Below, one piece after another: positions 6,006-23,390 of a DNA stretch of 32,000 nt. A model generated the notes under the pieces. The model was given only the letters and a program-made list of their open reading frames with translations. It did not search any database and was not told the DNA's origin. The stretch lies in assembly GCF_000022265.1 (NCBI RefSeq), contig NC_011979.1:2640001-2672000 (forward strand), given 5' to 3'. How positions within the stretch are numbered: position 1 is the stretch's first letter; each line of letters starts with the position of its first letter. A program made the translations under genes and the position numbers. The stretch is from Geotalea daltonii FRC-32. GTDB lineage: Bacteria; Desulfobacterota; Desulfuromonadia; Geobacterales; Geobacteraceae.

Positions 6006-6082
<77 letters not shown>

Positions 6083-6376: not shown

Positions 6377-6730
6377 CTAACCAGTACGTAGTCTTTTTGC
6401 GCGTTCTGTCGTGCAGACGTTTTGATTTTTTGCTTTCTTGGCTACCTTTTCACTGACCAAACGCAACTCCAAACGGCAACCAAGAGCATGTGCATATTTC
6501 TGCAATGTCGCAATGGATGGTGAATGCTTTCCTCCTCCTGATTCGAGTCGGGCGATTGCAGATTGTGTTGTACCGATGCGCTCAGCTACTTCGGCTTGTG
6601 TTACCCCTGCGGCAGCACGAGCTTTGAGGAATTCATCAAGAAATCGGAACTCTTCATCCAGTGCATCATATTCAGTTTTTACGTCTGCCCTCTGAAGGGC
6701 GCGATCTTTAAGTTCTTTGTGTGTGAGCAT
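6377..6730 (-). CDS. higA: XRE-family HTH antitoxin (HigA-like)
   Basis: 117-aa ORF with the HTH segment GVTQAEVAERIGTTQSAIARLESGGGKHSPSIATLQKYAHALG. It lies downstream of the toxin gene and overlaps it by 23 nt (the HigBA gene order). Confidence 0.75.
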   Translation of the reverse strand: MLTHKELKDRALQRADVKTEYDALDEEFRFLDEFLKARAAAGVTQAEVAERIGTTQSAIARLESGGGKHSPSIATLQKYAHALGCRLELRLVSEKVAKKAKNQNVCTTERAKRLRTG

Positions 6731-7049
6731 TTTTGTACTCCTTCATCCGTCTTTGTGCCGTTTCAAGTTCTCTTGGTGGGGTTTTGTCTGTCTTCTTTAC
6801 AAATTGGTGCAGCATCACGATTTTACGACCAATCATCGTGCAGTAGAATACCCGTGCAATTCCCTCAGCGGATTTCAGTCGCAATTCAAAAAGGCCGTCT
6901 CCCATTGCTCGGGTATGCGGCATGCCGAGGTCTGGTCCGTAAAGCTCCATTCTGTCGGTGTACCGAAAATAGCGACCAAGGAATCCGGCAGGCATGGCAA
7001 GGATTTCTTCTTGTACTGATTCGCTGTAGTAGGTGAGTGTCCAAATCAT
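6708..7049 (-). CDS. higB: RelE/ParE-superfamily toxin, Gp49/HigB-like
   Basis: 113-aa ORF. The pattern LFELRLKSAEGIARVFYCTMIGRKIVMLHQFVKKTDKTPPRELETAQRR is typical of the phage Gp49-like (DUF891) toxin family. Confidence 0.75.
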   Translation of the reverse strand: MIWTLTYYSESVQEEILAMPAGFLGRYFRYTDRMELYGPDLGMPHTRAMGDGLFELRLKSAEGIARVFYCTMIGRKIVMLHQFVKKTDKTPPRELETAQRRMKEYKNAHTQRT

Positions 7050-7578: not shown

Positions 7579-7628
7579 AGGGCTGACCCCGTCACGTCGG
7601 ACCAGGGCTGACCCCGTCACGTCGGACC
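7579..7628. repeat. Two tandem 25-bp direct repeats (AGGGCTGACCCCGTCACGTCGGACC)
   Basis: Perfect copies at 7579-7603 and 7604-7628. The truncated istB frame runs into copy 2 and stops there. This is consistent with multi-repeat IS21-type terminal transposase-binding sites brought next to the gene by a deletion. Confidence 0.85.
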
Positions 7629-7775
7629 CTCCGCCTTGAGGACATGCTCAAGAAAATCGATATAGGATGACTCCTGTTTGGCCGCCACATCCGCGAGATC
7701 GGCATAGACATCGGCCACCGCCTGGAACTTGAGATCATCGCACAAGGCTAGTATCCGTTGGTGCTGTACGCTCAT
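7617..7775 (-). pseudogene. istB: IS21 helper ATPase IstB, N-terminal fragment only
   Basis: My own translation gives MSVQHQRILALCDDLKFQAVADVYADLADVAAKQESSYIDFLEHVLKAEGPT*. This matches only the first ~50 aa of IstB-type proteins. The AAA+ domain is absent. Confidence 0.6.
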
Positions 7776-8602
7776 AGCCGTCCCTCCTGGAGCATCTGCT
7801 CATAAATGGCAGGAGTGCGCTGCAGAGGTGTCACGGGCCAGAAAGCAGGGAGAATAACCTTCTTCTCGGACTCAACGGATACACCCTGCGGAAGCGGCAG
7901 CAGAACTTTGAGCTCGGTCTCCATCCGGTCACAGGGGCGCTCGTTGGTTTCACCGTGGATACGGCAATTGGCTACCTCGTCGAGCCAGCGTCGCACTTCG
8001 ATATTGGCGGTGGCAACGTCGAGGACCAGACCAGCCTGCTTCAGCCGCGAGACTAAAGGGTAATGGAAGCTGTACCGCAGGTAACGATTGAAACGCTCTA
8101 CCTTTCCCTTGGTCTTGGCGCGGTACGGCTTGCAGAGCCTGGGTAAGAACCCAAAACGCTTGGAGATGTCCCACAGTCCGGCATGAAAGCGGTGTTTACC
8201 GTTGCCGTAAGCGTTACGCTCCAGTACCACGGTCTTCATGTTGTCATAGAGCACTTCATACGCCGCCAAAGAATGAGAAAGCTGCCTCATGGCACTCGCG
8301 AAGGACATTGAAAGCTTGGCTGGTCGTATAGGCGACGAAGGTGTTACGACTGAAGCCGAGTGTGGCAACGAAAGGATATGGTGCGGCAAGGCGGCCTTCA
8401 CCCGCTCTTCCAGAAACGCCTTGAACGGGTCCAGTTTCGATGGTCGCTTAGGCCGCGTCTTATACCGTGGGTCTGCTCGCGAACGAAGATACTTTCTGAC
8501 GGTGTGTCGGGACAAACCGGTGATCCTGGTGATCTCCCGGATGCTTTTGTGTTGCTTGTCTCTTAGGATTCTGACTTCCATGCACTCTTCCTTTCCAGTC
8601 AT
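7772..8602 (-). pseudogene. istA: IS21-family transposase IstA with internal deletion
   Basis: 276 aa, compared with about 400-500 aa for intact IstA. The N-terminal HTH (IREITRITGLSRHTVRKYLR) is joined to the distal DDE region (LYDNMKTVV ... PYRAKTKGKVERFNRYL ... VANCRIHGETNERP). The first part of the catalytic core is missing. Confidence 0.7.
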
Positions 8603-8886: not shown

Positions 8887-9549
8887 TTACTCCAGATTAT
8901 TGGGTTCCAAATTAAAATGCCATTCCTCAAAGAAATCGCTCAAAAATTGTTCAATGACTGCATGCCTGGACCTCGCCAGCCTTTTACCTGTTTCTGTATC
9001 GAAATCGTCTTTAAGTAGCAACAGTTTCTCGTAATAATGATGAATAACAGAAGGACAATGGGCTCCTGATTCGTACGGCTTGTTTGAGAATGGCACTGTA
9101 GGGTTCCAAATGCATTCATCATACTTTCCACCATATACGAACGACCTGGCAACACCTATAGCACCCAATGCATCGATGTTATCAGCATCTCTGACTATTT
9201 GCGCCTCGAGCGAGAGCTTGGATCGCGCACCAGGAGAAAACGAGTATTGGCTTGTATATGAAATGATTTCTAATATTGTGTCATGATATTTTGGGTTAAC
9301 AGCTATCTGGCCTAAATGTTCTCTTACCGTTTTTTCAGCCTCTTTATGAGATACCTTGGTTGCTTTCAAGCCCTCAAGATGTCGATCGATATCATGTAGA
9401 TAACAAGAAGCGACTATAACCTCCAAATTCCCACCTTCATAATGCGAGATATAACGGGCGATCCTCTCAACCCGCTCTAAATGAAAAAAATCGTGAGCAG
9501 AAGACTCGCCTTGGTAAAAGTCTTTGACATAATCCTTAATATCTTTCAT
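8887..9549 (-). CDS. HD-domain metal-dependent phosphohydrolase (YedJ/YpgQ-like)
   Basis: 220-aa ORF. The HD signature is FFHLERVERIA ... SCYLHDIDR ... VRDADNIDALG. RBS GGGGGAT lies upstream. It is the last gene of the AT-rich operon. Confidence 0.75.
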   Translation of the reverse strand: MKDIKDYVKDFYQGESSAHDFFHLERVERIARYISHYEGGNLEVIVASCYLHDIDRHLEGLKATKVSHKEAEKTVREHLGQIAVNPKYHDTILEIISYTSQYSFSPGARSKLSLEAQIVRDADNIDALGAIGVARSFVYGGKYDECIWNPTVPFSNKPYESGAHCPSVIHHYYEKLLLLKDDFDTETGKRLARSRHAVIEQFLSDFFEEWHFNLEPNNLE

Positions 9550-9576
9550 TTATCCCCCAAACTAGCCGGGTGTGCA

Positions 9577-10458
9577 CTAGTTTTCAAAAACACAGCCAAC
9601 ACCGGTATGAGCCATAAACCACGCGAGATGCGATAAATAAGCACCTTCCTTGATAATGACTGAATCATTATTTCCCATGGATGAAATATGATCAAACAAT
9701 GGATTACTAATCAACTTGGTAGCACACCCTTGAGAATGCGGGCTGACCATAAATGGCTTCTCTAATCTTCCCCCTGACAAACCTTGATAGGCCAATTTGT
9801 CAATGTCTTTATACTCTAGAAAATACATCCTTCCAGCTTGAAAGCCCACTTCGTAAAGGCAATCATGGTCAGGGTCAATATTTTCGAGGACTCTTAAACT
9901 GTCCAATGACGGACATTTACTTGAGCTAGCAGGATATTCCATCCATTGAGCACCATCCCACCTAACGCAGACTGGCTGGCGGCCGAAATCTTCGCTAATT
10001 AAATCACCATTTGAATCTAATAGGAATCTATTTTTGAAAAATCCTTTCCTAAACAAGGCATCCGGCGCACCTTCCACGATCTCAAGAAGAATATGCCTGT
10101 CTTTGACAAGTATTCCTCCAGACCAATCAAACTCCAATAGTGGTTGGACTGTCATGTCATAATCATGAATTCCAAGGTCCTCTGCTTCGGCAATAAGAAT
10201 GTGAATGGTTTCTTCAATATCCTGAGTGGAGGTTAACCTTTTCAGGCAATGTGGATAAACTGAATCTGAAAAATTAGCTCTAACATACAACCATTGTGGT
10301 GCCCATTGGCTAACCAATTGGACCGCGGTGGGGACTTCAGCTTTTTTATGAAACAAAACCGTATTAGGAATCCTCAAATTGCTGCCATCCAAGGCTATAA
10401 GACTCCTGACTTTATCCGTAACTACCTCAAAATTGTTTAGCCTGAATAACCCAGTCAT
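9577..10458 (-). CDS. Small PEP-utilising-enzyme-like protein (ATP-grasp-like core plus phosphohistidine swivel-like C-terminus)
   Basis: 293-aa ORF. TVQPLLEFDWSGGILVKDRHILLEIVEGAPDALFRKG resembles the PpsA/PPDK nucleotide-binding domain. The C-terminal VIIKEGAYLSHLAWFMAHTGVGCVF resembles the mobile His-domain motif (GG-x-T-SH-aAI-ARE-GIP). The assignment is by eye only. Confidence 0.4.
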   Translation of the reverse strand: MTGLFRLNNFEVVTDKVRSLIALDGSNLRIPNTVLFHKKAEVPTAVQLVSQWAPQWLYVRANFSDSVYPHCLKRLTSTQDIEETIHILIAEAEDLGIHDYDMTVQPLLEFDWSGGILVKDRHILLEIVEGAPDALFRKGFFKNRFLLDSNGDLISEDFGRQPVCVRWDGAQWMEYPASSSKCPSLDSLRVLENIDPDHDCLYEVGFQAGRMYFLEYKDIDKLAYQGLSGGRLEKPFMVSPHSQGCATKLISNPLFDHISSMGNNDSVIIKEGAYLSHLAWFMAHTGVGCVFEN

Positions 10459-10558
10459 TTCGTACCCTATAAAAAAATGGAATTATAAGACCACTGGCGA
10501 CTTGACCCCAAACCATCAAACCTATGGTACTGTGGCTTATGTCGAGTTTCAGAATTTC

Positions 10559-10822
10559 TTATTCAGCTTCGGCTTGAGCAGAAAAAGAGGGCGTAGTTTC
10601 GTCTCTGTTTTTCCACTTAAAAAACCCATATAAAGCTTGCACTGAATACACAGTAAACAGGAATACAGAAGCATAGATTCCCTGATAATAATAGAAAAAA
10701 ACCCAAAAAACGTTTATCACCACCCATATTAAATATCCGGTTCGTCTTTTATTAATAACAAGTTGGCCACCAAGTAAACTTCCAGCCACAAGCAACCAAG
10801 TTAAAGCACCATTTGCATTCAA
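10559..10822 (-). CDS. 87-aa three-helix membrane protein, PnuC (nicotinamide riboside transporter)-like single repeat
   Basis: Three hydrophobic segments. The pattern LVINKRRTGYLIWVVINVFWVFFYYYQGIYASVFLFTVYSVQALYGFFKW resembles the PnuC/NMN-transporter family consensus, which ends in YG-x2-W. It uses a TTG start with GAGGGGGA upstream. Confidence 0.4.
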   Translation of the reverse strand: MNANGALTWLLVAGSLLGGQLVINKRRTGYLIWVVINVFWVFFYYYQGIYASVFLFTVYSVQALYGFFKWKNRDETTPSFSAQAEAE

Positions 10823-10882
10823 AACGTTCCCCCTCGTTCCACCTACCCTGAGTTATTAGATGTTCAAATAAAATGACTCAAT

Positions 10883-11788
10883 TCAACTAAAAGCTTGCAA
10901 AATAACATCTTGAGCGGACGCACCCTCTTTAGGGCAGCAACAATTCGTAGCGGAATGGAGTATTTTTACGTAACCTTCTAAGATATTAAGCCTTGAGCCG
11001 TTGTCCATGACACAATCTACCGACTTATTGTTTCTGAATTCCTCAAAACTACTGGTGTTTGCAACAAACCCCTCATTTACTAGATTTCCATTGAAATTTG
11101 AAGGAAACAAACCATTAAACTCACTAAGGGTCAAAAATTTATGATTGTCCTTATGCACATGAACGGATCGGACTTTTAAACCTTTGTTACTTAAACTTTT
11201 AATTCTTTCAATATATTCCGGTACCCCACCACATTCGTATGTATCAAGTAAGACAGAAGCACCATGCCCTACCATTAACTTTTCGTAAAGTTCTCCAACA
11301 TAACGCCTATGCCTGGAACTGAGCCAGTTATGGTAGGATAGTCTTATCTCCTCAACTTCTAGATTATTCCCAGCGGCAAGATAGGCGAGCTTTTGTTTGT
11401 AATCTGAAAGTTCGGCCTCCTCATTAACACGGAGATCTCCTACTGGCGCATGCACAATGTAGTCAGTGAATCCTAATGTGGCGCAAAAAGAAAAAAATTG
11501 CTGCAACAATTTAAAGCCAAGAGGCTTTGACCAGTCATAACTATAACCGCCAGGTTGGTGTACTCTCACCTCTGATGGTGACAGACCATAATCATGTAGG
11601 TACTCCTTGAACCTCAATATCTCACCTTGCAGCGTTTTTAAATCGTCAGTAAAAAAAGACTGGCCAGCAATTACTGGAAGTTGGGTTAATAAGGCAACCT
11701 CAATTCCAATATTCAGTCCAATTAACCCCTGAATGTAACCCCTATCAGCAAAATCGTTGACAGTTACAGTCGTATACATAATACCCAT
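10883..11788 (-). CDS. Xylose-isomerase-like TIM-barrel protein (sugar-phosphate isomerase/epimerase family)
   Basis: Track ORF 10883..11806 has a TTG start. The ATG at 11788 has GGAAGGA upstream. Family-like strand motifs are DYIVHAP, NNLEVEEI, VLLDTYECGG and VRSVHVHKDNH. Confidence 0.45.
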   Translation of the reverse strand: MGIMYTTVTVNDFADRGYIQGLIGLNIGIEVALLTQLPVIAGQSFFTDDLKTLQGEILRFKEYLHDYGLSPSEVRVHQPGGYSYDWSKPLGFKLLQQFFSFCATLGFTDYIVHAPVGDLRVNEEAELSDYKQKLAYLAAGNNLEVEEIRLSYHNWLSSRHRRYVGELYEKLMVGHGASVLLDTYECGGVPEYIERIKSLSNKGLKVRSVHVHKDNHKFLTLSEFNGLFPSNFNGNLVNEGFVANTSSFEEFRNNKSVDCVMDNGSRLNILEGYVKILHSATNCCCPKEGASAQDVILQAFS

Positions 11789-11889
11789 TGAATTAATCCT
11801 TCCCAACCCGTGCCCTTACAAAATGAATACGGAACAGGTCTTAGTCGGCCCAAAAGCTTATCCCAACGCCCTAGATTTTTACCTGCTAA

Positions 11890-13161
11890 CTAAACCTTAA
11901 GTAGGCGCAAATCGTTTTTGATAATGTATCTGAACCATGCCCCTGCAAAGGCCGAGGTTATTATCGCAATCAAGATGAGCGAAGCTGAAAAAGAGCTACT
12001 GACTATCCCCAAGTCAAGCGCTACAGTCGCCAAAACAATGAGTGGCCCACCTTTAGTACTCATCGCAATCCCTAAATTGACACTAGAAAACCAATCTACT
12101 CTCAACATCCTAGTTGCAACTAAGCACCCAGCCATCTGAAAAAAAGTCATATACAAAAGGAACCAACCAAGAAAGAGAGGATCGAAATCCCTGATAAGGT
12201 TCAGCTTTAACCCGACTATGGCGAAATAGAGTGGAACAAAGAAAGCAAGAGAAAATTCCCGGATATGCTTTTTAACATTTATAAATTCGGGCTCTTTAGC
12301 CATCCCAACTACGATACCGGCGAGGAGTGCGCCAAATACCAAGTTAACGCCTAACATACTAGCTATTGCCACAAGAAACAGGCACACCGCCATGACATAC
12401 CCAACAATTGATGACCTGGCAACTACATTCCATTTCGAACCATTCAAGAACATTATTGCTCTTGGTATGATCTTTAAGAAAACTATAAAAAACGCTATCG
12501 TGATGACTAATTTGAGGACTATTTCTGATAAATTGATGGTACGTGCAGCTACTAAATCCCCAGCAATAGCTAAAGCGATCCACACTACTAAATCATGTAT
12601 TGTTGCAGCGGCGAGAACAACATTCGCAAACGGTGTACTTACAATATTCAGTTCGATAAATATTTTAGAAATAACAGGGATAGAAGTGACCGCAGTTGCA
12701 ATTGCTATAATCAATTGCAATGCTAACAGGCTGTGTTTGTCACCGACGTAAGGCGTGAGGTCAAAACAAATCGGCAAAAACCATCCGGCAATGAATGGTA
12801 TGATTGTAGAGCCAATAGTGAGTCCAAAAACAAGTTTATTGTTTTTCTGGTTTAAATAGTTCTGTATTTCAAATCCAGAAATAAACATTAATAAAATCAA
12901 GCCAAACCAGTAGACAATGGAAATTAGCTTACCCTCTGCTACAAATGCATTAAAAACCCAATTCTGCAGATCCGGCAGAAAATGACCAAATACCGTTGGC
13001 CCTAATAAGAATCCACCAAATATTTCACCAATAACACTAGGCATCCTCAATAAAGTAAAAAAGTAGCCACAAATGTGAGCAAAGGTCAACAGCAGGAAGA
13101 TTGCCATGAAAAACCGCGTCAACTCCAGGTCTGTCAAATAGATTGTGTCAGAAACCGTCAC
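11890..13161 (-). CDS. Cation:proton antiporter, CPA2/Na_H_exchanger family, without a KTN domain
   Basis: 423 aa with about 12 predicted hydrophobic helices. The N-terminal signature LLRMPSVIGEIFGGFLLGPTVFG is typical of KefB/NapA-type antiporters. Confidence 0.75.
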   Translation of the reverse strand: MTVSDTIYLTDLELTRFFMAIFLLLTFAHICGYFFTLLRMPSVIGEIFGGFLLGPTVFGHFLPDLQNWVFNAFVAEGKLISIVYWFGLILLMFISGFEIQNYLNQKNNKLVFGLTIGSTIIPFIAGWFLPICFDLTPYVGDKHSLLALQLIIAIATAVTSIPVISKIFIELNIVSTPFANVVLAAATIHDLVVWIALAIAGDLVAARTINLSEIVLKLVITIAFFIVFLKIIPRAIMFLNGSKWNVVARSSIVGYVMAVCLFLVAIASMLGVNLVFGALLAGIVVGMAKEPEFINVKKHIREFSLAFFVPLYFAIVGLKLNLIRDFDPLFLGWFLLYMTFFQMAGCLVATRMLRVDWFSSVNLGIAMSTKGGPLIVLATVALDLGIVSSSFSASLILIAIITSAFAGAWFRYIIKNDLRLLKV

Positions 13162-13195
13162 ACCAACCCCTGCTCTGCTAAGATAACTCTAGTAA

Positions 13196-14101
13196 TCATG
13201 AATAAATTGCCCTGTTTGATACGCACTTATCCCAAAGATGATTGATTTCGTGGAAAGCCTCACGTATATGATCTGCTGTCATTTGTTTGGTATCACCAAG
13301 CGATACGTAATCTCCTTTACTGGAATACGCTAAAGTTAAATCAGGCTTTACAAATACATATGATTCATCCCTTTCTGCAGCTGTCGCATGTGATATGTGT
13401 ACATCGGGAAAATATTCTTTTAAGTTTTGCATCAGTCCTTCGAAATCATCTTGAGGGATACTCAGGCTATCTATATAACTGTAATTATCGTTATAATCAT
13501 TAAAATTGCTAAATTGATAGAATCTCCAGACATCAGGCGTATACAGCGGAAACTTCTCAAACATGATCTTGCCAAGTAATGCGACATGATCGATATTTTT
13601 TTTGGTTACAACAGTACCAAGTTTAACTTTAGCTGTTAGATCATCGTATTCTTTGTAATATCTGAGGAACTCTACTACTTGTGTAAAGTGTTGCGCACCT
13701 AATTCTCCCGTGATTATTTTATCTAACTCTGCTGATGGTGCGTCGAGAGATATACTAATCCATGACAAATATGGGGAAATTTCTTTCCATATTTGTTTTA
13801 ACAGCAGGCCATTAGTAGACAGGTACACGGCGAAACCAATTTTTTTTGCATATTGGGCAATGTCAGCAACATCTTCTCGGACCGTCGGTTCTCCGCCAGT
13901 CAAAACCACTCGCCTCAACCCTGCGATGTATAGCTTGTCTAAAACGTGCTTTATTTCAGCCAAAGAAGCCTCACTGCCCTCTTTTGGGGCATAGCACTTA
14001 TTACAGTTGAGATTACAACGATAAGTAACCATAATATCCACCGGGATTTGACTCAAATCTGTTGTTTTCACATTACCTCCCTCATTAGGCACAAAGGACA
14101 T
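13196..14101 (-). CDS. Radical SAM enzyme, viperin-like (candidate prokaryotic viperin / NTP dehydratase)
   Basis: 301 aa. The cluster motif is YRCNLNCNKCY (CX3CX2C), followed by VVLTGGEPTV, YLSTNGLLL and ISISLDAP. The distal VWRFYQF ... SIPQDDFEGLMQ ... DESYVFV lines up with animal viperin RWKVFQC ... IGDEEFERFLE ... KDSYLIL (from memory). An alternative GTG start at 14071 has the strong RBS GAGGGAGG. Confidence 0.6.
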   Translation of the reverse strand: MSFVPNEGGNVKTTDLSQIPVDIMVTYRCNLNCNKCYAPKEGSEASLAEIKHVLDKLYIAGLRRVVLTGGEPTVREDVADIAQYAKKIGFAVYLSTNGLLLKQIWKEISPYLSWISISLDAPSAELDKIITGELGAQHFTQVVEFLRYYKEYDDLTAKVKLGTVVTKKNIDHVALLGKIMFEKFPLYTPDVWRFYQFSNFNDYNDNYSYIDSLSIPQDDFEGLMQNLKEYFPDVHISHATAAERDESYVFVKPDLTLAYSSKGDYVSLGDTKQMTADHIREAFHEINHLWDKCVSNRAIYS

Positions 14102-14104
14102 CCC

Positions 14105-14935
14105 TTAATTATCAAATATGCCCAATACCTGAGCTGCACGTTGATATTTGATTTTCTTTGTAATACTAACGCCGAACCTATTACCCAACGATTGTGATAG
14201 GACCTCTATCAACTTGACCACGCGAGGGTCCTTTGCAACCTCCGGGCTTATTCGAGGGTAAATAGCCAGCTCTACTTCTGAAACAGGGCAGCTTTTACGC
14301 TTATCCTCTGGTAACCGTAGATTGGACACATGAGCTCTATCTATGCTACATCGCAATGCGTCTTTCTTATCGAGCCAGACAAAAAACGTGAACCTGTAAT
14401 CATCAAGACGTATAGAAGGAATAAGATCAGTACCACGAATACCAAGCTTTTGCTCTAAGTGTAGTCCAGGCTGATCAATGTCTTTTCGTTTTAATAAAGA
14501 CTTGACGATACTCACCGCCTCGATTGAGTCAGGTCCATTTTGTATTGTTTTTTTCTCATCACCCGCAAACACATATCTGTGGTCCCGCCTGACGCTGTGA
14601 CTATCTGATGCTTCTTTAAAGGCACAAAAAGCATGCGTTATTTTATTGCACGAAGTACGCAGCAATGCGCCAGTGTTCAATATCTTGTAATCCTCTGTAT
14701 CGTAATATATTGCGGTGTTTAACGGTGGAGTCACCCGCGCATTTTCCTTTTCAACAATTTTTGCGCCATGTACCAATCCATCAATACAATCTTTCATCTC
14801 ATCTAACCACTGGTAGTACTGTTCGTTCGTTACATTGTCCATCTCGACTTTAACCGCAAGCTGATTAAATATCACCAGCTTCCCAGGTTCGACGGTATAA
14901 ACGGCCTCTTCACTTGGCATCCTTATGCAATCCAT
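14105..14935 (-). CDS. CYTH-like (triphosphate tunnel metalloenzyme) domain protein
   Basis: Track ORF 14105..14950 has a TTG start. The ATG at 14935 has GGAGG 6 nt upstream. The strand pattern resembles CYTH: YYDTEDYKILNTGALLRTS, AFKEA, RRDHRYVF, DDYRFTFFV, SIDRAHV, VSEVELAI, and a C-terminal KIKYQRA. The N-terminal EXEXK motif is degenerate (VKVEMD). Confidence 0.45.
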   Translation of the reverse strand: MDCIRMPSEEAVYTVEPGKLVIFNQLAVKVEMDNVTNEQYYQWLDEMKDCIDGLVHGAKIVEKENARVTPPLNTAIYYDTEDYKILNTGALLRTSCNKITHAFCAFKEASDSHSVRRDHRYVFAGDEKKTIQNGPDSIEAVSIVKSLLKRKDIDQPGLHLEQKLGIRGTDLIPSIRLDDYRFTFFVWLDKKDALRCSIDRAHVSNLRLPEDKRKSCPVSEVELAIYPRISPEVAKDPRVVKLIEVLSQSLGNRFGVSITKKIKYQRAAQVLGIFDN

Positions 14936-14981
14936 GGTTAATCCTCCCAAATATAAGAAATTGATTAATCTCCTCTTTGCC

Positions 14982-15932
14982 CTAAAGGACGGGACATAGC
15001 GGATCGATGCTCGGTTGGTGCTTCAATGCGACAGCAACGCACCCTTTACCGCATCCGGGAACACCACAATTGCTGCATAAAGGGTGATTAAAAAGCTTCT
15101 CCAATTCCGTCGGAAATCCAAATACGTCTTTTACACTGTCGGAATCATATTCTGAGGTGAAGCTAGAAATCCAAGAGCACGGCGTTATCTTGCCATCGGA
15201 CAATATTCCGATAATGTTTTTGCCGGCTGGGCATTTTTGCAACTTCCCTTTTTTAGGTCTAATCAAGTCGATGTACTTTTTGTCTTGCAGTACGTCAGAA
15301 TTTACAATCTGACTTATTTCCTCCTGTGAAACTACATATTCAGAAAGTTCCGCATTATCGTCGACTTCAATTATGTCATTGAGCTTGGCACTTAAATCAT
15401 GAGTTTTTAAGAACTTAAATAATTCGGGAAGTTCATGAATATTCTTCTTCGTTACTGTGTACTGTAAGGAGATTTTTGCCTTGTAAGGCAATAACTCCAG
15501 TATGTTATTAATCACCTGGTCGAAGGCTCCAACCCTACCAGTAAACTCATCGTGTGTTTGCGCAGAAAAACCACACAATCCAATTCTTATTTTCACTGAT
15601 TCACAACACAGTAAATCTAAGAAATGTTTATCTAACAAAAGACCATTCGTATTGATTGATACTGTCATACCTTTTGCTTGAGCATAATTTACAACCTGAA
15701 ATATCCCATCGAATAGTAACGGCTCACCACCTGTTAGTATTATACGTTTAATCCCATGAACAGCCAAATCGTCGATTAGACCCTCGGCTTCCTTCAAAGT
15801 TATTTGTGCATTTTCTCGACGATGTTTGTTTAGACAGTGCTTGCAGCTTAATTGACATTTCCCTGTAATTTCCCAGTTCACCTTGATGACATCTTCATTT
15901 GGCCAGAAACAACATGCTCTTATGTATTCCAT
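14982..15932 (-). CDS. Radical SAM enzyme with C-terminal SPASM/twitch domain
   Basis: 316 aa. The cluster motif is GKCQLSCKHCLN, followed by RIILTGGEPLL and SINTNGLLL. The C-terminal auxiliary-cluster cysteines are KCPAGKNIIGILSDGKITPCSW and CSNCGVPGCGKGCVAVA ... DPLCP. RBS AGGAGA lies upstream. Confidence 0.8.
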   Translation of the reverse strand: MEYIRACCFWPNEDVIKVNWEITGKCQLSCKHCLNKHRRENAQITLKEAEGLIDDLAVHGIKRIILTGGEPLLFDGIFQVVNYAQAKGMTVSINTNGLLLDKHFLDLLCCESVKIRIGLCGFSAQTHDEFTGRVGAFDQVINNILELLPYKAKISLQYTVTKKNIHELPELFKFLKTHDLSAKLNDIIEVDDNAELSEYVVSQEEISQIVNSDVLQDKKYIDLIRPKKGKLQKCPAGKNIIGILSDGKITPCSWISSFTSEYDSDSVKDVFGFPTELEKLFNHPLCSNCGVPGCGKGCVAVALKHQPSIDPLCPVL

Positions 15933-16049
15933 TATTTTCTCCTATTGATACTTCGAAATGAAAGCTGAAGCTTATGGCTAAACCTTTTCAGCGGCTACAA
16001 CCTTACTTTCATTACGACAGCAATAAGGCTGTATCTACGCAAACCATTC

Positions 16050-16442
16050 TTAATCAGCGATGGTGTCACAACTGCCAAAACTCCAACCTTCTATAGGTTT
16101 GTAAACCATCGCTTTATCCTTGAGCAGGCCAGAATGCTTTTTTACGAACAGCTCGATTTCTTCGCGCAATGAAATAAGCTCAATATAGAGATTTAAAGAA
16201 GAGTTATGGTATTCCGACAATTTCCCTGTTTCTATCTTTCCATTAGGAATGTAGCCGCTGTGCATTAGATAAGCGTACGCACTAAAAATCCCGTCCTGCT
16301 TGGCTGCTTCAATAATATCTTCGTACAGAGACCTACCGAAAAAACGCTGTAGGTTGGTAGTCGCTTTGACTTTATCTCTTGCAGTCATATAAATACGCAA
16401 TTGTCCATATTCTTTTATGACTACACTTTCGTCATCCGACAC
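16050..16442 (-). CDS. DUF190 (PII-like fold) protein
   Basis: 130 aa with a GTG start and GGGAGG 6 nt upstream. The pattern LRIYMTARDKV ... SLYEDIIEAAKQDGIFSAYAYLMHSGY ... LNLYIELISLREEIELFVKK matches the DUF190 family layout. Confidence 0.55.
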   Translation of the reverse strand: MSDDESVVIKEYGQLRIYMTARDKVKATTNLQRFFGRSLYEDIIEAAKQDGIFSAYAYLMHSGYIPNGKIETGKLSEYHNSSLNLYIELISLREEIELFVKKHSGLLKDKAMVYKPIEGWSFGSCDTIAD

Positions 16443-16508
16443 TTACAACCTCCCATAGTCCCATGGTTTAACATTGCCTTACTACACTAGTAACAAATTC
16501 ACCTTTAC

Positions 16509-17057
16509 CTAAACAGTTTCCAAAATACCATTGAGGCAATGTTCCTTTTCAATCACTGCTTCACTACAATTAACAAATTCATTGAATGCTTTGTTAAGTA
16601 ATTTTTTGTAGTTTGGGAAAATATTCAGAGCCTGTATCTCTGCTTTGCTAAACCATCCTATATTTTTATACTCTCGGTAATCATGCCGGATTTGATCAGT
16701 ATTTGAACTGCATATAAAAACAAAATCTATGTGATAATGTAAATCATTTGGTATATTTATCAGTTCGCATAAAACAGCGTATGGGTTGTGCAGTACAACG
16801 GCTTCATTTGTTCCAAGATTTACATCACAATTACTAACAATGGTTATTTTTAAACCTGTTTCTTCCATTATTTCTCTACTAACAGCTTCGTCAGGGGATT
16901 CGTTTACCTCTATATGCCCACCTGGCCCGAGCCAGGTGCCTAATTTTTTGTGTTCTAGTAATAGCACTTTCTCATTGTGGAAAATGATTGCCGACGCAAC
17001 GAAATGCTTAATGACCGAACCTTCTCTTAAGGTTGCTACCTCACAGTCTACAGACAT
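16509..17057 (-). CDS. NUDIX hydrolase
   Basis: 182 aa with a complete Nudix box, GGHIEVNESPDEAVSREIMEETGL (GX5EX7REUXEEXGU). It is the first gene of the AT-rich operon. Confidence 0.85.
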   Translation of the reverse strand: MSVDCEVATLREGSVIKHFVASAIIFHNEKVLLLEHKKLGTWLGPGGHIEVNESPDEAVSREIMEETGLKITIVSNCDVNLGTNEAVVLHNPYAVLCELINIPNDLHYHIDFVFICSSNTDQIRHDYREYKNIGWFSKAEIQALNIFPNYKKLLNKAFNEFVNCSEAVIEKEHCLNGILETV

Positions 17058-17237
17058 TGAAAACCCCTATTCTAGCTGACTATTTAGCTTGTCAGTCTTC
17101 CCAGATGGACTGCATTGCACTCATTTGCGTCGCGTTTTTACGTTCTAACAATAAGCATCCAGACAACAGCTGAACAATCCCTACCACCTCGTTTAAACCC
17201 TGTGCGGTTTGAAATACAATTTTTGGTCATATTAATG

Positions 17238-17257
17238 AACTGTCCTAAAGGACAGGT
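17238..17257. promoter_or_regulatory. lux-box-like 20-bp palindrome (AACTGTCCTAAAGGACAGGT)
   Basis: It has the CTG-N10-CAG core and 8 of 10 symmetric half-site positions. It lies in the 482-bp divergent region between the NUDIX operon start (17057) and the luxI-like start (17540). Confidence 0.5.
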
Positions 17258-17539
17258 GCTTCGTGCTTAGCTTCTTTAAGCCGCTAAAAGAGGAGTCGTT
17301 ATTGATTATTTTTTGAACTTGCTGGCGGGTATTTACTGAAACATTTCAAAGCAGTTTGGGATTACTCGGAGTCATTAATTGACGTAACCAGTGTAAATTG
17401 AATGCAATTCCATCTTGATTTTTGGAGGAACCACATCGGTACAGACCTGATTTTGGCAAGGAATGTTGCCGCAGCTGTACTTAAAGCCAGGTGATTTTCT
17501 TTCAATTTTCTCCTCTTATGTGTTTCAAGGAGGAGTAAT

Positions 17540-18277
17540 ATGATAGCGATTAGCAAACATGTTGCAACACCCGCTGCTAATGGCCTTAAGAGTGATGTCT
17601 TTATAAGGGAGGGTGGTCTTTATGTCACAAACATTGTTGCAAAAGAAGATATATTTAAAGCACATTCATTGAGGTATAGAGTTTTTTGTGATGAATTGGG
17701 ATGGGCTCCCCAAAATTTTTGTAAGCTTGATATAGATAATTATGATGATGGGGCTGTCTTTTTTGGCGTTTTTGATGTGAATAATGATTTAAAAGCCTTT
17801 TTACGGATTGTGACCTCAGATCATCCATTCATGATAGAGAACGAGTTTCCGTTTTTGGTAAAGGCGGGATCAACTATAAGCAAACGAGACGATGTCGTTG
17901 AGGTATCAAGACTATGTGTTGATGCCGATGCAAGATCAGAGACGTTTTCTGGTAATTTCGGCGTGCATACTGCCTCTCTTCTTTTATATAAGGGTGTTTA
18001 TCATTGGTGTTTGAAGAATCGAATAAACTACCTTTATCTTGTTGTTGATTATAAGGTGTTCAGATTGCTAAATGTGAAAGGATTTCCCTGCAGATTGATA
18101 GGAGATCCAAAAGTTATGCCCGATGGTGTAGTTGCGGTTGCAGCAATGCTGAATTGGAGGGAATTTGAAGAGTTGAACCTTGTTGGAACTAAAAATTTGA
18201 AATCATGGTTCAGTCAATATCAATTACCCCCGCCGACAGTGCAATTGCCACAGCGTGAGTTCTGCTCACAGCATTAA
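17540..18277 (+). CDS. LuxI-family acyl-homoserine-lactone synthase-like protein (GNAT fold)
   Basis: 245 aa with RBS AAGGAGG upstream. Family-invariant positions are present with the expected spacing: LRYRVFCDELGW, DIDNYD, AFLRIV and VEVSRL. The related N-acyl amino acid synthase family cannot be excluded. Confidence 0.65.
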   Translation: MIAISKHVATPAANGLKSDVFIREGGLYVTNIVAKEDIFKAHSLRYRVFCDELGWAPQNFCKLDIDNYDDGAVFFGVFDVNNDLKAFLRIVTSDHPFMIENEFPFLVKAGSTISKRDDVVEVSRLCVDADARSETFSGNFGVHTASLLLYKGVYHWCLKNRINYLYLVVDYKVFRLLNVKGFPCRLIGDPKVMPDGVVAVAAMLNWREFEELNLVGTKNLKSWFSQYQLPPPTVQLPQREFCSQH

Positions 18278-18956
18278 GTTTAACCATGATATTTTCAACA
18301 TGAAATTTTACAGTTCTTACACTGATAGCGAGAATTACTGAGATATCCCAAGAACTCTTTCCCTTTTTCACCCAATTAAGCACTTCTATTTCTCTTTTTG
18401 AAAGTTCGAAATTTACTGGAGCTTTTGTTTTTGATAAATAAGTCGTAAATGCAGTATGTAAATGTGGGGTCAAATTTTCAATTATGAATTTCTCACGTGG
18501 GTGGTTTTCCAGTTTACCAGCAACTGAAAACAGGCTTCCTTCTGTCGATTTCAAGTTTCTAACTCCACAGGCAATACCATTATATAAGTTAAAATCTCTT
18601 GCCGCTGAGATGAATTCTTTAGGTGGATTCCATTTCTTGTAGGTGTCTTCCCAAAACTGTAGCTCAAAATTACTAAAGTTTTCTTTAGCAATCGGGTCGA
18701 CTTGACAAAAATTTTTTCTTTTATAAGTGATTAGCCATTCTTCTGGATAAGATATATTCATTACATCATATGTCTGTATTAGACCGTTAGTACCTATTTG
18801 GGCTATACCAAATACTGCGTTATCAATCGCTACAAGACTAGACAAACTGTCTACAATATTCTTAATACCTGTCTTATTCTTACAGGTCACACATTCGTGA
18901 ATAAGCTCTAAAAGAAAAACTGCATCACGCTTTGAAATACAATCAGTATTTTCCAT
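18210..18956 (-). CDS. LuxR-family transcription regulator with autoinducer-binding domain
   Basis: 248 aa. The N-terminal segment EEWLITYKRKNFCQVDPIAKENFSNFELQFWED reproduces the W-x3-Y-x8-DP-x13-W spacing of the AHL-receptor invariants (TraR W57, Y61, D70, P71, W85). The C-terminal HTH is LSKREIEVLNWVKKGKSSWDISVILAISVRTVKFHVENIMVKL. Confidence 0.8.
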   Translation of the reverse strand: MENTDCISKRDAVFLLELIHECVTCKNKTGIKNIVDSLSSLVAIDNAVFGIAQIGTNGLIQTYDVMNISYPEEWLITYKRKNFCQVDPIAKENFSNFELQFWEDTYKKWNPPKEFISAARDFNLYNGIACGVRNLKSTEGSLFSVAGKLENHPREKFIIENLTPHLHTAFTTYLSKTKAPVNFELSKREIEVLNWVKKGKSSWDISVILAISVRTVKFHVENIMVKLNAVSRTHAVAIALSAGVIDID

Positions 18957-19881: not shown

Positions 19882-20044
19882 ATTTATTCTTTCACCCAAC
19901 GGGCATGAAGTTGACCCGTCGTCTTTGTTTTTGGCGGGTCTAACTTTCTGGTTGGAAATTTGCCTTTTTCGCCGTTGATTTGTCTGGTTTTGCCAAATGC
20001 GTAGATCGGACCCTCGAAGGTTCCTCCACTATGCACGCTCAATA

Positions 20045-20140
20045 CGGGAGTTCAGGGGACACCAACGGGAGTTCAGGGGACACGGGAGTTCAGGGGACAC
20101 CATACTTATCTACTGGTGTCATTCGAATTAAGTATGGTGT
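20045..20140. repeat. Three direct 17-18-bp repeats followed by a 12-bp perfect inverted repeat (transposon-end, iteron or arm-site-like)
   Basis: GGGAGTTCAGGGGACAC occurs at 20046-20062, 20067-20083 and 20084-20100. ACACCATACTTA (20097-20108) pairs with TAAGTATGGTGT (20129-20140). An alternative stem is GACACCA (20096-20102) with TGGTGTC (20114-20120). Confidence 0.85.
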
Positions 20141-20757: not shown

Positions 20758-20938
20758 TATGTTGTGGTAATTCACAAGTATACGGACCTATTAGCTGGCA
20801 ATTACAGGGTTGTTCGCGGAAAAAACTTCATAGAACTATGATTTATATTTTGAAATTGAAAATTTGGACACCGGGTTGTGTTTATTTTCGGACAAAGAGC
20901 TGCCGGCAAAGCCGACAGTGGCTGAAGGAGAAGAGAGA

Positions 20939-22177
20939 GTGTGTGAAACAAGCTCATTATCCGAATTAAGAATCCTGGATTTCACCGGCGAGCTAGGTCC
21001 CTATGCTGCAAAACTGTATGCAGGTCTGGGCGCTGATGTCATTCACATAGAACCTGTAACTGGAGATCCTTTGCGGTCCACGGGACCGTTCTACGAAAAC
21101 CGGCCAGGAAAAGAAAACAGCCTCCAGTTCATCTATTACAATGCTGGCAAGAGAGGAATGGTGTTGGACATCAGCAACGAGACGGGTAGAAAAATATTTG
21201 TGGAAATGTGCAAAGGGGTCGACATTCTGTTCGAGAGCTTTGCCCCCGGATATCTTGATGCCCTGGGCCTGTCCTATGATGAGCTGAGTGCGGTAAATCC
21301 CAAATTGGTACAAACCTCCATTACACCGTTTGGTTACTTCGGACCGTACAGCGCGTATCCGGGGTCCGATCTGACCTGCGCGGCACTTGGAGGATTTTTG
21401 TATCTTGCAGGTGTCGATAACGACAAGCCGGTCCGGGCCTGTGACAATCAGGCCTATAGGATGGCTGAGGTCTATGCTGCTGTCGGTAGTTCAATTGCTG
21501 CACTGTTTGCCAAACGTACCGGCATAGGCCAGTTCGTCGATGTCTCCTGCATGGAGGCGGTGGGCATGGCTTTGGAGACCGCCGCTCAATGCTGGGATCT
21601 GGAAGGTACCCTGCGAAGGGGGAGAGGACGGGAGGCAGGATCGGCTACCATTCATCCCTGCAAGGATGGCTTTGTGGCCATCGTTGCCATCATGGGCAGG
21701 AACAAGGTCATGTGGGAGCCGTTCGTTGAATGGATGAAGGATGAAGATGTGGACGGATGGGAGCTCTTTAACAGCGATAACTGGATCAATGCTGCCTACC
21801 GTGAATCCAAGGAAGGATACGAACTGTTCTGCCGCATTTTTGAAGGCTTCACCATGAAGCACACCAAGCAGTATCTCTATGACGCCGGCCAGGCCCATCG
21901 AGTCGCCGTCAGCCCGGTCAGTAACGGCAAGGACCTTTTGGAAAATCCCCAGCTGAACTATCACGACTTCTGGAAGCGGCTGTATCACGAGCCGGTCGGT
22001 GGCGAGGTGGTCTGTCCCGGTCCCCCCTACGAGTTTGGGAATCTTAAGTGGCGCTTGGGGGATTTTGCTCCCACCTTTGGCCAGCACACCGCCGAGGTGC
22101 TTGGCGAATGCGGCTATAGCCGCACTGAAATCGAAGCGTTTCACAGGGAGGGGGTCGTCCATGTTGCCAAACCTTAG
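20939..22177 (+). CDS. bbsE: Family III CoA-transferase subunit (BbsE-like, succinyl-CoA:arylsuccinate CoA-transferase)
   Basis: Track ORF 20864..22177 has a TTG start. The GTG at 20939 has GAAGGAGAAGAG upstream. The CaiB/BaiF family N-terminus is [30 protein letters not shown]. The bbs assignment comes from the operon context. Confidence 0.6.
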
Positions 22178-23390
22178 AAAGGCCCTCGAAGGGATTGTGG
22201 TCTGCGACTTTTCCTGGGTAGGGGCCGGTCCGATCGCCACGAACGTCCTCGGCCAGTGCGGGGCCGAGGTGATCAAGATAGAAAGCAGGAACCGGCCGGA
22301 CCTCCTGAGAACAGGTGGCCCCTTCAAGGATGGGATCAACGAGGGGCTGGAGCGGAGCGGCTACTTCGCCAACCGCAATCCCAACAAGAAGGGGATCGCG
22401 CTGGATATGAGCCAGCCAAAGGCCAGGGCCGTGGCGGTTCGCCTGATCAAAAAGAGCGACATCGTCATCAACAACTTCCGCGTGGGGCAGATGGAGAAGT
22501 GGGGTCTTGGCTGGGAGGACGTGCAGAAGATCAACCCGCGGATCATCTACGTTACCATGAGCCTGCAGGGGGAAACCGGGCCGCAGAAGAGCTACATGGG
22601 GTTCGGGGTCAATCTGAATGCCTTGTGCGGACTCACCGCCCGGGCCTGTTTTCCCGGCGAGCGCCCTTTCGGGACCGGCACGAACTACACCGACCACGTC
22701 ATGGCCCCCAGCCACACGCTCTTTGGCATTATGGCCGCCCTGCTTGAACGGGAACAAACCGGCAAGGGGCAGACAGTGGCTGTCTCCCAGCTGAAATCCG
22801 CCATCAGCATGGCACCTACGAGCGCAATGGCCTATGCGGCCAATGGGGACACGCTGGGTCCGGCGGGATTCGGCGATCCCCATGCAGCGCCCCACGGACT
22901 GTACACAACTCTCGGTTATCGGAAATGGATCGCCATTGCAGTGTTCAGCGAGGACGAATGGCGGGCGCTGAAGAAGGTGATGGGAAACCCCGCCTGGGCT
23001 GAGGACGAGAAGTTCAGCTCGCTGCAAGGGCGCAAGGAGCACGAGGCGGAACTGAACGACCAGATCGAAGGGTGGACAAGAGGGCTGCACGCGGACCGGA
23101 TCATGAGCGAGCTGCTGCGAAACGGCGTCAGGGCAGGCGTGGTCAACGATGCACGGGGCGCCATCGAAGATGAGCACCTGCGGAAGCGGGAGTTCTGGTC
23201 GTACCTGGACCATCCGGTGATGGGGCGCACCCTGTACAATCGGGCACCGATCCGCCTTTCCAAGACTCCGCTCCGGATGGAAACCGCTGCCCCCCTCTTG
23301 GGCCAGCATACCAAGGAAGTGCTGAAAGGGATGCTCGACTACACGGATGAAGAGATCGCCATGCTCACCGAGGAAAAGGTGCTCGTGTAG
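22161..23390 (+). CDS. bbsF: Family III CoA-transferase subunit (BbsF-like)
   Basis: This is the in-frame ATG at 22161 within track ORF 21999..23390. It overlaps the previous gene by 17 nt. The N-terminus is [34 protein letters not shown]. Confidence 0.6.

Follow-up and report, generated by a model that had tools for sequence, protein, structure and literature searches.

In Photorhabdus asymbiotica, the three-gene cluster thmABC encodes the radical SAM enzyme ThmA, the nucleoside kinase ThmB and the nucleoside triphosphatase ThmC; its heterologous expression yields the antibiotic 4'-thiothymidine, the Nudix nucleoside triphosphatase (NTPase) ThmC alone gives self-resistance, and homologous thmABC trios have been reported across Enterobacterales (PMC12691670). 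A radical-SAM-based nucleoside-analogue cluster with hydrolase self-protection is a known kind of system. Nucleotide kinases are known partners of prokaryotic viperins (pVips), and some eukaryotic viperins are fused to a "triphosphatase or cyclase" domain (preprint 10.1101/2023.09.13.557418). Phosphate removal also belongs to such pathways: PenF is an HD phosphatase that acts as a tailoring enzyme in a nucleoside antibiotic pathway (PMC11592144), and TubG is a Nudix enzyme that dephosphorylates intermediates of a nucleoside antibiotic pathway (PMC6112128). The roles of PenA, PenB and PenC in pentostatin-type clusters have been described as well (PMC12648386). In this study, a 32,000-nucleotide stretch of Geotalea daltonii FRC-32 (contig NC_011979.1, positions 2,640,001 to 2,672,000, forward strand; hereafter the window) was analysed for a ten-gene cluster at positions 8887-17057, which contains a viperin-related radical SAM enzyme together with several putative phosphohydrolases and membrane proteins. 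Our preferred interpretation, held with moderate confidence, is that this acquired cluster, probably under acyl-homoserine-lactone (AHL) quorum control, makes a sugar-modified nucleotide or nucleoside analogue of the antimetabolite type, strips its phosphates and exports it.

An earlier reading of the DNA (the sequence-only reading) had described ten co-directional, AT-rich open reading frames (ORFs) on the minus strand with gaps of only 3-117 bp, and coordinates and composition agree with this description. All ten ORFs are present; the gaps in transcription order are 66, 117, 31, 3, 34, 83, 60, 100 and 27 bp, and the guanine-cytosine (GC) fraction is 0.36-0.44 across approximately 8.6-19.5 kb, compared with 0.50-0.64 in the flanks. 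The ORFs are real genes and not chance ORFs, because seven of the ten have Pfam matches above the gathering score, a conserved homologue family stands behind each of the three without a Pfam match (281, 307 and 293 aa), and the products are annotated as Geob_2408-2416 in G. daltonii FRC-32 with exact or near-exact sequence matches. Exact database sequences were found for seven products, including Geob_2409 and Geob_2415; one more matches Geob_2413, and for the 301-aa product the NCBI entries of the same strain include a protein of 100% identity. No convincing intergenic intrinsic terminator was found on the minus strand inside the cluster. The genes thus show an operon-like layout and most likely belong to a horizontally acquired low-GC island. 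In transcription order they are as follows (coordinates here and below are those of the window):

16509-17057, minus strand: NUDIX hydrolase, Geob_2416, first gene (PF00293, 53 bits)
16050-16442, minus strand: DUF190/PII-like small protein, Geob_2415 (PF02641, 32 bits, cut-off 23.4)
14982-15932, minus strand: second radical SAM enzyme with a Cys-rich SPASM/twitch-like C-terminus, Geob_2414 (PF04055, 63 bits)
14105-14950, minus strand: CYTH/triphosphate-tunnel-metalloenzyme-like protein of 281 aa, Geob_2413 (predicted structure and Foldseek)
13196-14101, minus strand: viperin-related radical SAM enzyme of 301 aa, Geob_2412 (PF04055, 68.7 bits; NF038283, 101 bits)
11890-13161, minus strand: CPA2-family cation:proton antiporter, Geob_2410 (PF00999, 124 bits; TIGR00932, 112 bits)
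10883-11806, minus strand: xylose-isomerase-like/endonuclease-IV-like TIM barrel of 307 aa, Geob_2411 (predicted structure and Foldseek)
10559-10822, minus strand: PnuC-like three-helix membrane protein of 87 aa (PF04973, 42.8 bits)
9577-10458, minus strand: 293-aa protein of a small uncharacterised family, Geob_2409 (49 representatives at 50% clustering)
8887-9549, minus strand: HD phosphohydrolase of the YedJ/YpgQ type, Geob_2408, last gene (PF01966, 37.7 bits; PRK10119, 95.6 bits)

The 301-aa enzyme had been called viperin-like, and this call holds in part. The NCBIfam viperin model NF038283 is its best NCBIfam match, and residues 21-291 align to positions 4-274 of the 281 in the model, so that the viperin-type C-terminal extension is matched across nearly the whole model; its score of 101.3 bits, however, falls short of the cut-off of 180. 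With the PADLOC pVip model the match is again almost end to end (116 bits, E 5e-34; residues 23-292 to positions 4-252 of 257). The PADLOC pVip models are not specific, since the neighbouring, unrelated SPASM enzyme (Geob_2414) also scores 79 bits. A search of 5.8 billion proteins returned approximately 11 close relatives of 46-59% identity, after which identity drops to 30% or less, and a genome-contig scan with the 301-aa protein gave distant N-terminal matches only. Members of this clade and its outgroups score 77-104 bits on NF038283, all below 180; in the members of type B, defined below, the model matches the N-terminal half only, and in one clade subgroup it is not the top match. Against PDB sequences, the clade profile gave 53 bits for mouse viperin, 52.5 for GDGT-MAS and 49.7 for MoaA. 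Mouse viperin itself is 24% identical to the 301-aa enzyme (61 bits).

An Asn-x-His just before the Cys triad is a signature of synthases of 3'-deoxy-3',4'-didehydro-NTPs (ddhNTPs), and in mouse viperin the basic residues K120, K220, R245 and K247 bind the NTP triphosphate. The clade was aligned with mouse viperin, mouse residues 70-285 being taken from HMMER output; the columns of the mouse C-terminus beyond them are less certain. The radical SAM CxxxCxxC triad (C29, C33, C36) is invariant in the clade, and so are G69-G70 within a GG[ED][PA] motif, which reads GGEP in the window protein. Asn77 and His79 of mouse viperin (VNYHFTRQC) are replaced by Asp and by Met or Leu in 11/11 clade members. 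The columns of viperin Lys120, Lys220 and Lys247 hold R/K64, an invariant K160 and an invariant R193 in the 11 members, while the R245 column has V/I/A and the N222 column G/A; the Tyr302 column, which lies in this less certain C-terminal part, has Tyr in eight members and Phe in three. The basic residues R/K64, K160 and R193 would fit a nucleotide substrate. The 301-aa enzyme groups with a separate family, the closest annotated relative of which belongs to a thmA-type architecture, and it is viperin-related without being a bona fide viperin. A ddhNTP product cannot be assumed because the cut-off is failed, the Asn and His are replaced and the enzyme groups with this separate family. It is presumed to be the core sugar-modifying enzyme of the operon.

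The relationship to a gene in a thmA-type architecture was seen in plasmid sequences. In a tblastn search of plasmids, genes of Escherichia coli annotated as "radical SAM protein" covered 94% of the 301-aa query, and the nearest outgroup among the compared sequences was the radical SAM protein of E. coli plasmid NZ_CP045714.1, which aligns end to end with 32% identity over 284 aa (153 bits, E 3e-49). The 301-aa enzyme is closer to this plasmid enzyme than to mouse viperin (153 versus 61 bits). Motifs common to the Geotalea and E. coli enzymes are D-x3-T-x2-CNLxCxxC, STNG, KLxTVV, W-R-F-Y-Q-F, ERD and a C-terminal NR, and the E. coli protein likewise has Asp at the column of viperin Asn77. Because the identity is only about 32%, the reaction of the Geotalea enzyme need not equal that of ThmA-type enzymes. 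On NZ_CP045714.1 the radical SAM gene is followed directly by genes for a deoxynucleoside kinase and for the nucleoside triphosphatase NudI, which suggests that nucleoside antibiotics may be produced from E. coli plasmids. The plasmid that carries this trio (positions 20793-22790 of the record) is a conjugative one of IncF type, on which toxin-antitoxin modules and colicin/immunity genes flank it, and a related radical SAM gene is also found on E. coli plasmid NZ_CP027324.1. The similarity of the Geotalea NUDIX protein to the NudI of the trio is generic (27% identity, 36 bits; PRK15472, 21 bits).

Gene neighbourhoods of the operon families were gathered by exact-protein look-ups and a metagenome scan and were compared by tblastn; L-numbers label the contigs. 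Parts of the operon recur in three arrangements. In type A, the radical SAM gene accompanies a homologue of the TIM-barrel gene (39-50% identity) in an Anoxychlamydiales metagenome-assembled genome (MAG), three other contig groups and a Bacillota MAG. In L009 and L010/11 the TIM barrel forms the N-terminal half of a protein of about 547 aa whose C-terminal half is adenylate-kinase-like, and in another type-A group it precedes two adenylate kinase (ADK)-like genes. The Bacillota MAG and one further contig have the order CYTH-like, radical SAM, TIM barrel, followed in the MAG by an MFS gene; in Geotalea, the CYTH-like and radical SAM genes are 3 bp apart and the CPA2 gene lies between the radical SAM and TIM-barrel genes. 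In type B, found on at least five contigs, the radical SAM gene occurs with genes for an HD protein, a 375-aa radical SAM protein, two DUF4254 proteins, a 310-aa radical SAM protein, an APH-like kinase and a 586-aa protein. The contigs concerned are:

radical SAM gene beside a TIM-barrel homologue: L005/6/24, L009, L010/11/26, L019/20, L025
HD gene beside the radical SAM gene: L007/8/32, L027, L028, L029, L030; 3.7 kb away in L031

The eight-gene type-B cluster (L007/L032, L027, L028, L030, L031) is metagenomic and apparently uncharacterised, with three radical SAM enzymes and a kinase that is APH/choline-kinase-like.

In the actinomycete arrangement, seen in Kitasatospora and Streptomyces calvus, the CYTH-like gene adjoins a CPA2 gene (32-33% identical to that of Geotalea) and a histidine phosphatase gene. 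In the contigs of Kitasatospora (L013-L015) and S. calvus (L023), the CYTH-like gene lies within 3 bp of the CPA2 gene or overlaps it, and the histidine phosphatase gene comes next. The S. calvus locus contains HisG, an SDR and a SAICAR-synthetase homologue, and the Kitasatospora stretch an SDR and a SAICAR-synthetase homologue; these loci further hold NUDIX or DUF190, PNP, NDK, MFS and SARP or GerE regulators. These loci are apparently uncharacterised clusters of the pentostatin/coformycin type. Across the relatives' neighbourhoods, the kinases encountered are ADK, guanylate kinase, thymidylate kinase and APH, and EamA or MFS exporters and LuxR/GerE/SARP-type regulators accompany the loci. 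The recurring partners are without exception nucleotide or nucleoside enzymes, exporters or regulators of the pathway type, a combination that follows the logic of nucleoside antibiotic clusters and for which a pathway of this kind is proposed. Neighbouring NB-ARC/TPR proteins had been considered as defence STAND NTPases, which was dropped; two of them have GerE or BTAD DNA-binding domains, as in LAL/SARP-type regulators. DUF190 proteins and Na+/H+ antiporters accompany fluoride-responsive genes, and the CYTH-like homologue in S. calvus, a nucleocidin producer, also prompted the idea of a fluoride or fluoronucleoside link. This was rejected: no fluoride or other riboswitch was found in the window, and the S. 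calvus locus is of the pentostatin type and, as far as visible, not the nuc cluster.

The two further proteins of these modules were recognised at the level of fold. The CYTH-like and xylose-isomerase-like calls of the sequence-only reading were borne out by structure prediction and Foldseek only. The 281-aa CYTH-like protein had no Pfam, NCBIfam or PDB sequence match, either singly or as a profile, and the CYTH profiles of Pfam and NCBIfam matched neither it nor 41 relatives. Its AlphaFold2 (AF2) model, with a mean confidence score (pLDDT) of 94.5, retrieved YgiF (5a60, E 2e-10), class IV adenylate cyclases, ThTPase and VTC4 in Foldseek with a probability of 1.0 and TM-scores of up to 0.71 normalised by target. 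The protein is predicted to have the eight-stranded CYTH/triphosphate tunnel fold. Its first tunnel strand reads VKVEMD (K-x-E-x-D) and not ExExK, and a C-terminal SEVELA is present. The family is much larger than the other core families of the operon: it has at least 334 homologues, which are unannotated and reach 60-74% identity even in Streptomyces, Kitasatospora, Myxococcus and Bacillota. On plasmids of Pantoea and Erwiniaceae the CYTH-like gene occurs with a histidine phosphatase gene and, in Pantoea, also a deoxynucleoside kinase gene. A homologue of 46% identity occurs at 3058-3818 on NZ_CP010911.1, a 7.6-kb plasmid of the stink-bug gut symbiont Candidatus Pantoea carbekii; it was matched as two pieces, is annotated as two hypothetical proteins and may be a pseudogene.

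The 307-aa protein likewise had no profile or PDB sequence match, singly or as a profile, and PF01261 was touched by one of 18 family members only (E 0.0017). Its AF2 model (pLDDT 87.5) retrieved endonuclease IV, ketose 3-epimerases and xylose isomerase in Foldseek, with an E value of 1e-8 against 4hno, 4pgl, 2x7v and 1qum, and the protein is predicted to be a metal-dependent TIM barrel of the xylose-isomerase-like/endonuclease-IV-like kind. Invariant in the family are H83, H119, E150/152/153, D188, E191, H216, H218, H222 and E245; this His-rich set appears nearer to the metal-site pattern of endonuclease IV than to the four-ligand pattern of the epimerases.

For the other operon proteins, profile matches agree with the families named by the sequence-only reading, namely NUDIX, DUF190, CPA2, radical SAM, a PnuC-like fragment and a YedJ/YpgQ-like HD protein. 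The NUDIX protein has an intact Nudix box (G-x5-E-x7-REIMEETGL) in its translation and is a candidate NTP/NDP pyrophosphatase for product maturation or self-protection. In Geob_2414 the SPASM signal is weak (17.5 bits, below the cut-off); its best NCBIfam matches are AhbD/NirJ at about 100 bits, far under the cut-offs, and its closest PDB sequences are SkfB and BlsE. PDB relatives of the HD protein are 3djb, 2qgs, 5dqv and 3gw7 (YedJ). The PnuC-like protein of 87 aa covers positions 113-175 of the 175 in PF04973, which is the C-terminal third, reaches 34.8 bits on TIGR01528 (cut-off 42.45) and is without the full seven-helix architecture; the 60-bp gap upstream of it is too short for the missing part of PnuC. 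By analogy with SemiSWEETs, it is possibly a half-size ("semi-PnuC") riboside transporter working as a dimer.

Of the ten family calls of the sequence-only reading, nine were verified. The remaining one, by which the 293-aa protein was a mini phosphoenolpyruvate (PEP)-utilising or ATP-grasp-like protein, was not sustained. The protein has no Pfam, NCBIfam or PDB match, 35 relatives have none in Pfam, and the family profile has none against the PDB; hhalign against a PPDK_N protein gave a probability of 1.3%, and a local "GAxLSH" is the sole likeness to PEP-utilising enzymes. Within its family, K16, R60, Q105, E126, G139, R144, E203, G272 and H277 are invariant. The closest homologue outside Geotalea (33% identity) is found in a Clostridia MAG (JAOABQ010000102.1, 7179-10882), where its gene overlaps by 4 nt that of a 302-aa protein with a kinase-like HGDL...N motif seen by eye and no Pfam match. 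Upstream of this pair are genes for a GNAT protein, a PycTM protein (Pycsar effector-type) and an MBL/Apyc1-like hydrolase, and a phage-type integrase gene adjoins. Unlike the setting in Geotalea, this context looks like one of defence or cyclic-nucleotide signalling.

Next to the operon lies a quorum-sensing gene pair, whose LuxI and LuxR assignments were upheld by Pfam, and the intergenic region between the NUDIX and luxI genes contains lux-box-like sites. The features around the operon are:

17540-18277, plus strand: LuxI-type AHL synthase gene, divergent from the operon (PF00765, 67.6 bits, above the cut-off)
18210-18956, minus strand: LuxR-type regulator gene, convergent with luxI (PF03472, 87.8 bits; PF00196, 71.4 bits; both above the cut-offs)
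17240-17255, unstranded: lux-box-like 7+7 palindrome CTGTCCT-AA-AGGACAG in the NUDIX-luxI intergenic region (matches CTG-N10-CAG)
17475-17490, unstranded: second, weaker lux-box-like site CTGTACTTAAAGCCAG, an imperfect palindrome 50 bp upstream of luxI (pattern match)
6006-6082: tRNA-Met, left of the operon

The luxI gene has a GC fraction of 0.37-0.40 and lies within the low-GC island of the operon, and the coding regions of luxI and luxR overlap by 68 bp (18210-18277). Thus, the whole operon and luxI/luxR share one island with a lux-box-like palindrome between them, which supports the quorum-controlled pathway. The palindrome at 17240-17255 is located 183 bp upstream of the NUDIX start codon. 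The bare CTG-N10-CAG pattern is not enriched in the window (11 observed, 7.7 expected), and it is the palindromic form and the position alone that are suggestive of a function. Both putative sites would be compatible with LuxR control of the operon. A 16-nt near-repeat is also present, as CGGTTTGAAATACAAT at 17205-17220 and CGCTTTGAAATACAAT at 18928-18943, the second copy spanning the luxR start.

The tRNA-linked setting with toxin-antitoxin genes and insertion sequence (IS) debris, noted earlier, was confirmed. Directly after tRNA-Met comes a toxin-antitoxin-like pair of Gp49 (HigB-like) and HTH_3 genes (6377-7049, minus strand). A 276-aa ORF at 7772-8602 (minus strand) has weak HTH_7 and rve_3 matches only and a GC fraction of 0.56, unlike the island; it is probably a decayed IS transposase gene. 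Near this edge of the island, a 25-nt unit, AGGGCTGACCCCGTCACGTCGGACC, is repeated twice in tandem at 7579-7628, and near the other edge ACGGGAGTTCAGGGGACACCA occurs in three overlapping copies at 20044-20102. Neither border of the island showed an att-like direct repeat matching the end of tRNA-Met.

In the proposed pathway, the viperin-related radical SAM enzyme (13196-14101) would bind a nucleoside polyphosphate and start radical chemistry on the sugar; C4' is the likely site if viperin and the formation of 4'-thionucleosides are taken as guides. The His-rich TIM barrel (10883-11806), its conserved partner, may act next on the sugar or the phosphate, and the second radical SAM/SPASM enzyme may add further tailoring. 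The CYTH-like, NUDIX and HD phosphohydrolases would then take the product down to a lower phosphate or to the free nucleoside, and may in addition bar the analogue triphosphate from the producer's own polymerases, as ThmC does for 4'-thiothymidine; self-resistance through ThmC therefore offers a rationale for the Geotalea hydrolases. The CPA2 antiporter and the three-helix PnuC-like protein could serve export or ion coupling, and LuxR with its autoinducer would activate the operon at high cell density. In its general outline, the proposal of the sequence-only reading, a nucleotide-analogue pathway in which phosphates are trimmed and the product is transported, is supported.

Several points weigh against this interpretation. 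The full ten-family set was found in no other locus compared, so that of the co-occurrence sought by the sequence-only reading only the sub-modules were recovered. Pfam and NCBIfam searches gave no kinase family match among the ten Geotalea proteins, although kinases accompany most relatives. The NUDIX and DUF190 proteins resemble their actinomycete counterparts at family level only (25% identity over 63 aa between the Geotalea and Kitasatospora-locus DUF190 proteins), the PnuC-like ORF may be a truncated gene remnant, and the lux-box-like site at 17240-17255 is a pattern match only. We infer that the E. coli trio belongs to the thmABC family from architecture and taxonomy, not from the ThmA sequence. 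Substrate, product, order of steps and regulation, and with them every chemical step, are likewise what we infer for the operon. Some of these points are what would be expected if the island were a mosaic of unrelated cargo, in which an ion transporter and house-cleaning hydrolases stand beside two or three small modules and no pathway unites them. A ten-gene set without a second example could be a recent assembly of non-cooperating parts, and Geotalea indeed mixes elements that occur separately elsewhere: TIM barrel and CYTH-like protein in type A, HD protein and second radical SAM enzyme in type B, and CPA2, NUDIX and DUF190 in the actinomycete loci. The one-third match of the PnuC-like ORF and the IS debris adjoining the operon also suit a mosaic. 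However, the genes lie on one strand at 3-117 bp spacing with uniform composition and without an internal intergenic terminator, the recurring modules all concern nucleotide or nucleoside chemistry, and the CYTH-like and radical SAM genes, 3 bp apart here, are adjacent again in two other lineages. A mosaic therefore seems unlikely.

The other alternatives accept a common pathway and differ in its purpose. The sequence-only reading had regarded a defence island and a quorum-controlled nucleoside natural product as equally fitting contexts; of these, the natural product is now favoured and defence less so. If the locus were a pVip-type anti-phage system, the 301-aa enzyme would make a ddhNTP upon infection and the hydrolases would modulate or detoxify it. 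The full-length PADLOC match (116 bits, E 5e-34) and the viperin model as best NCBIfam match agree with this, as do nucleotide kinases, the known pVip partners, near several relatives, the "triphosphatase or cyclase" domain found fused to eukaryotic viperins (10.1101/2023.09.13.557418), and the presence of IS debris and a toxin-antitoxin-like pair in the island. Yet the PADLOC model is unspecific, giving 79 bits to the SPASM neighbour; the enzyme scores 101 bits against the cut-off of 180, with all clade members at 77-104; no clade member keeps the Asn and His that precede the Cys triad; and an enzyme of thmA-type architecture is far closer than viperin (153 versus 61 bits). pVip loci are not characterised by membrane transporters, regulation through quorum sensing or a set of tailoring enzymes, and the NB-ARC/TPR neighbours with GerE or BTAD domains look like regulators. 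Close relatives of the radical SAM, CYTH-like and TIM families were absent from IMG/VR viral contigs, which shows only that they are not phage-borne. Because of the exporters, the LuxR/SARP-type regulators, the tailoring enzymes and the lack of phage-borne relatives, a quorum-regulated nucleoside-analogue pathway is favoured over a pVip system, which appears unlikely. The locus might instead serve uptake and salvage or a cofactor pathway: the PnuC-like protein would bring in a riboside, which the radical SAM enzymes and the TIM barrel would trap or remodel, and the hydrolases would balance nucleotide pools; all of this would serve the cell itself, with nothing secreted. PnuC-family proteins import ribosides and the operon has a Pfam match to them; the clade is about equally similar to MoaA, a GTP-processing cofactor enzyme, and to viperin (49.7 versus 53 bits), and the NUDIX and HD enzymes are of housekeeping type. 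A patchy, horizontally acquired distribution, with approximately 11 close relatives in 5.8 billion proteins, is however unlike that of a cofactor pathway; a quorum-sensing pair adjoins the locus, the CYTH-like partner occurs in antibiotic-type clusters, and the relatives have EamA or MFS exporters. Salvage or a cofactor pathway is accordingly unlikely, and the secreted, quorum-controlled nucleoside analogue remains our preferred interpretation.

The statement that no locus with this gene set has been described was upheld: the literature found describes neither the gene set, the radical SAM and TIM-barrel module, the CYTH-like family nor the quorum-sensing linkage, and literature searches returned nothing on the Geob locus tags or on a prokaryotic viperin in G. 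daltonii. A bolder proposal, which we advance only tentatively, is that the radical SAM enzyme, the TIM barrel and the CYTH-like protein form a new module, distributed across Desulfuromonadota, Chlamydiota-like MAGs and Bacillota, that makes sugar-modified, possibly 4'-substituted, nucleotides or nucleosides of a new class and that is wired to AHL signalling and secretion in Geotalea. If so, no anaerobic metal reducer would have been known before to have a nucleoside antibiotic pathway of this kind, and a quorum-controlled nucleoside antimetabolite in subsurface Geobacteraceae would be of ecological interest. It would also represent a new chemical branch of the viperin/ThmA-like radical SAM enzymes acting on nucleotide sugars, which are a source of antiviral and antibacterial chain terminators, and would give the first functional leads for three uncharacterised families, including the CYTH-like family with its hundreds of members. 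Profile-based defence annotation, for its part, could mislabel the 301-aa enzyme as a pVip despite its failing the curated viperin criteria.

Compared with described systems, the Geotalea operon resembles thmABC in pairing a radical SAM enzyme with a Nudix-type NTPase, to which its relatives add nucleotide kinases, and the E. coli plasmid trio has the identical three-gene architecture. It differs in having ten genes instead of three and no recognisable kinase; its additions are the membrane proteins, the second radical SAM enzyme and the TIM-barrel, CYTH-like and HD proteins. With viperins and pVips it shares the radical SAM core, a C-terminal extension spanning nearly the whole viperin model and putative counterparts of several triphosphate-binding basic residues, and kinases lie near relatives of the Geotalea enzyme, as they do near many pVips (10.1101/2023.09.13.557418). 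Unlike the pVips, however, the Geotalea enzyme sits in a multi-enzyme operon with transporters beside a quorum-sensing pair. The pentostatin-type "protector-protege" clusters (pen, ada/ade, cof and mac) are similar in that the actinomycete loci combine CYTH-like and CPA2 genes with NUDIX or DUF190 and in that tailoring includes dephosphorylation by HD (PenF) and Nudix enzymes. The Geotalea operon lacks their HisG/SDR/SAICAR trio and PNP, whereas the actinomycete loci were seen without a homologue of the viperin-related radical SAM enzyme or of the 307-aa TIM barrel. In oxetanocin A biosynthesis, the B12-dependent radical SAM enzyme OxsB remodels the sugar of a deoxyadenosine phosphate and the HD phosphohydrolase OxsA removes the phosphates. 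The pairing of radical SAM and HD enzymes in Geotalea and its type-B relatives recalls this pathway; the Geotalea radical SAM enzyme is without a B12-binding domain, and the likeness meant here is one of enzyme type.

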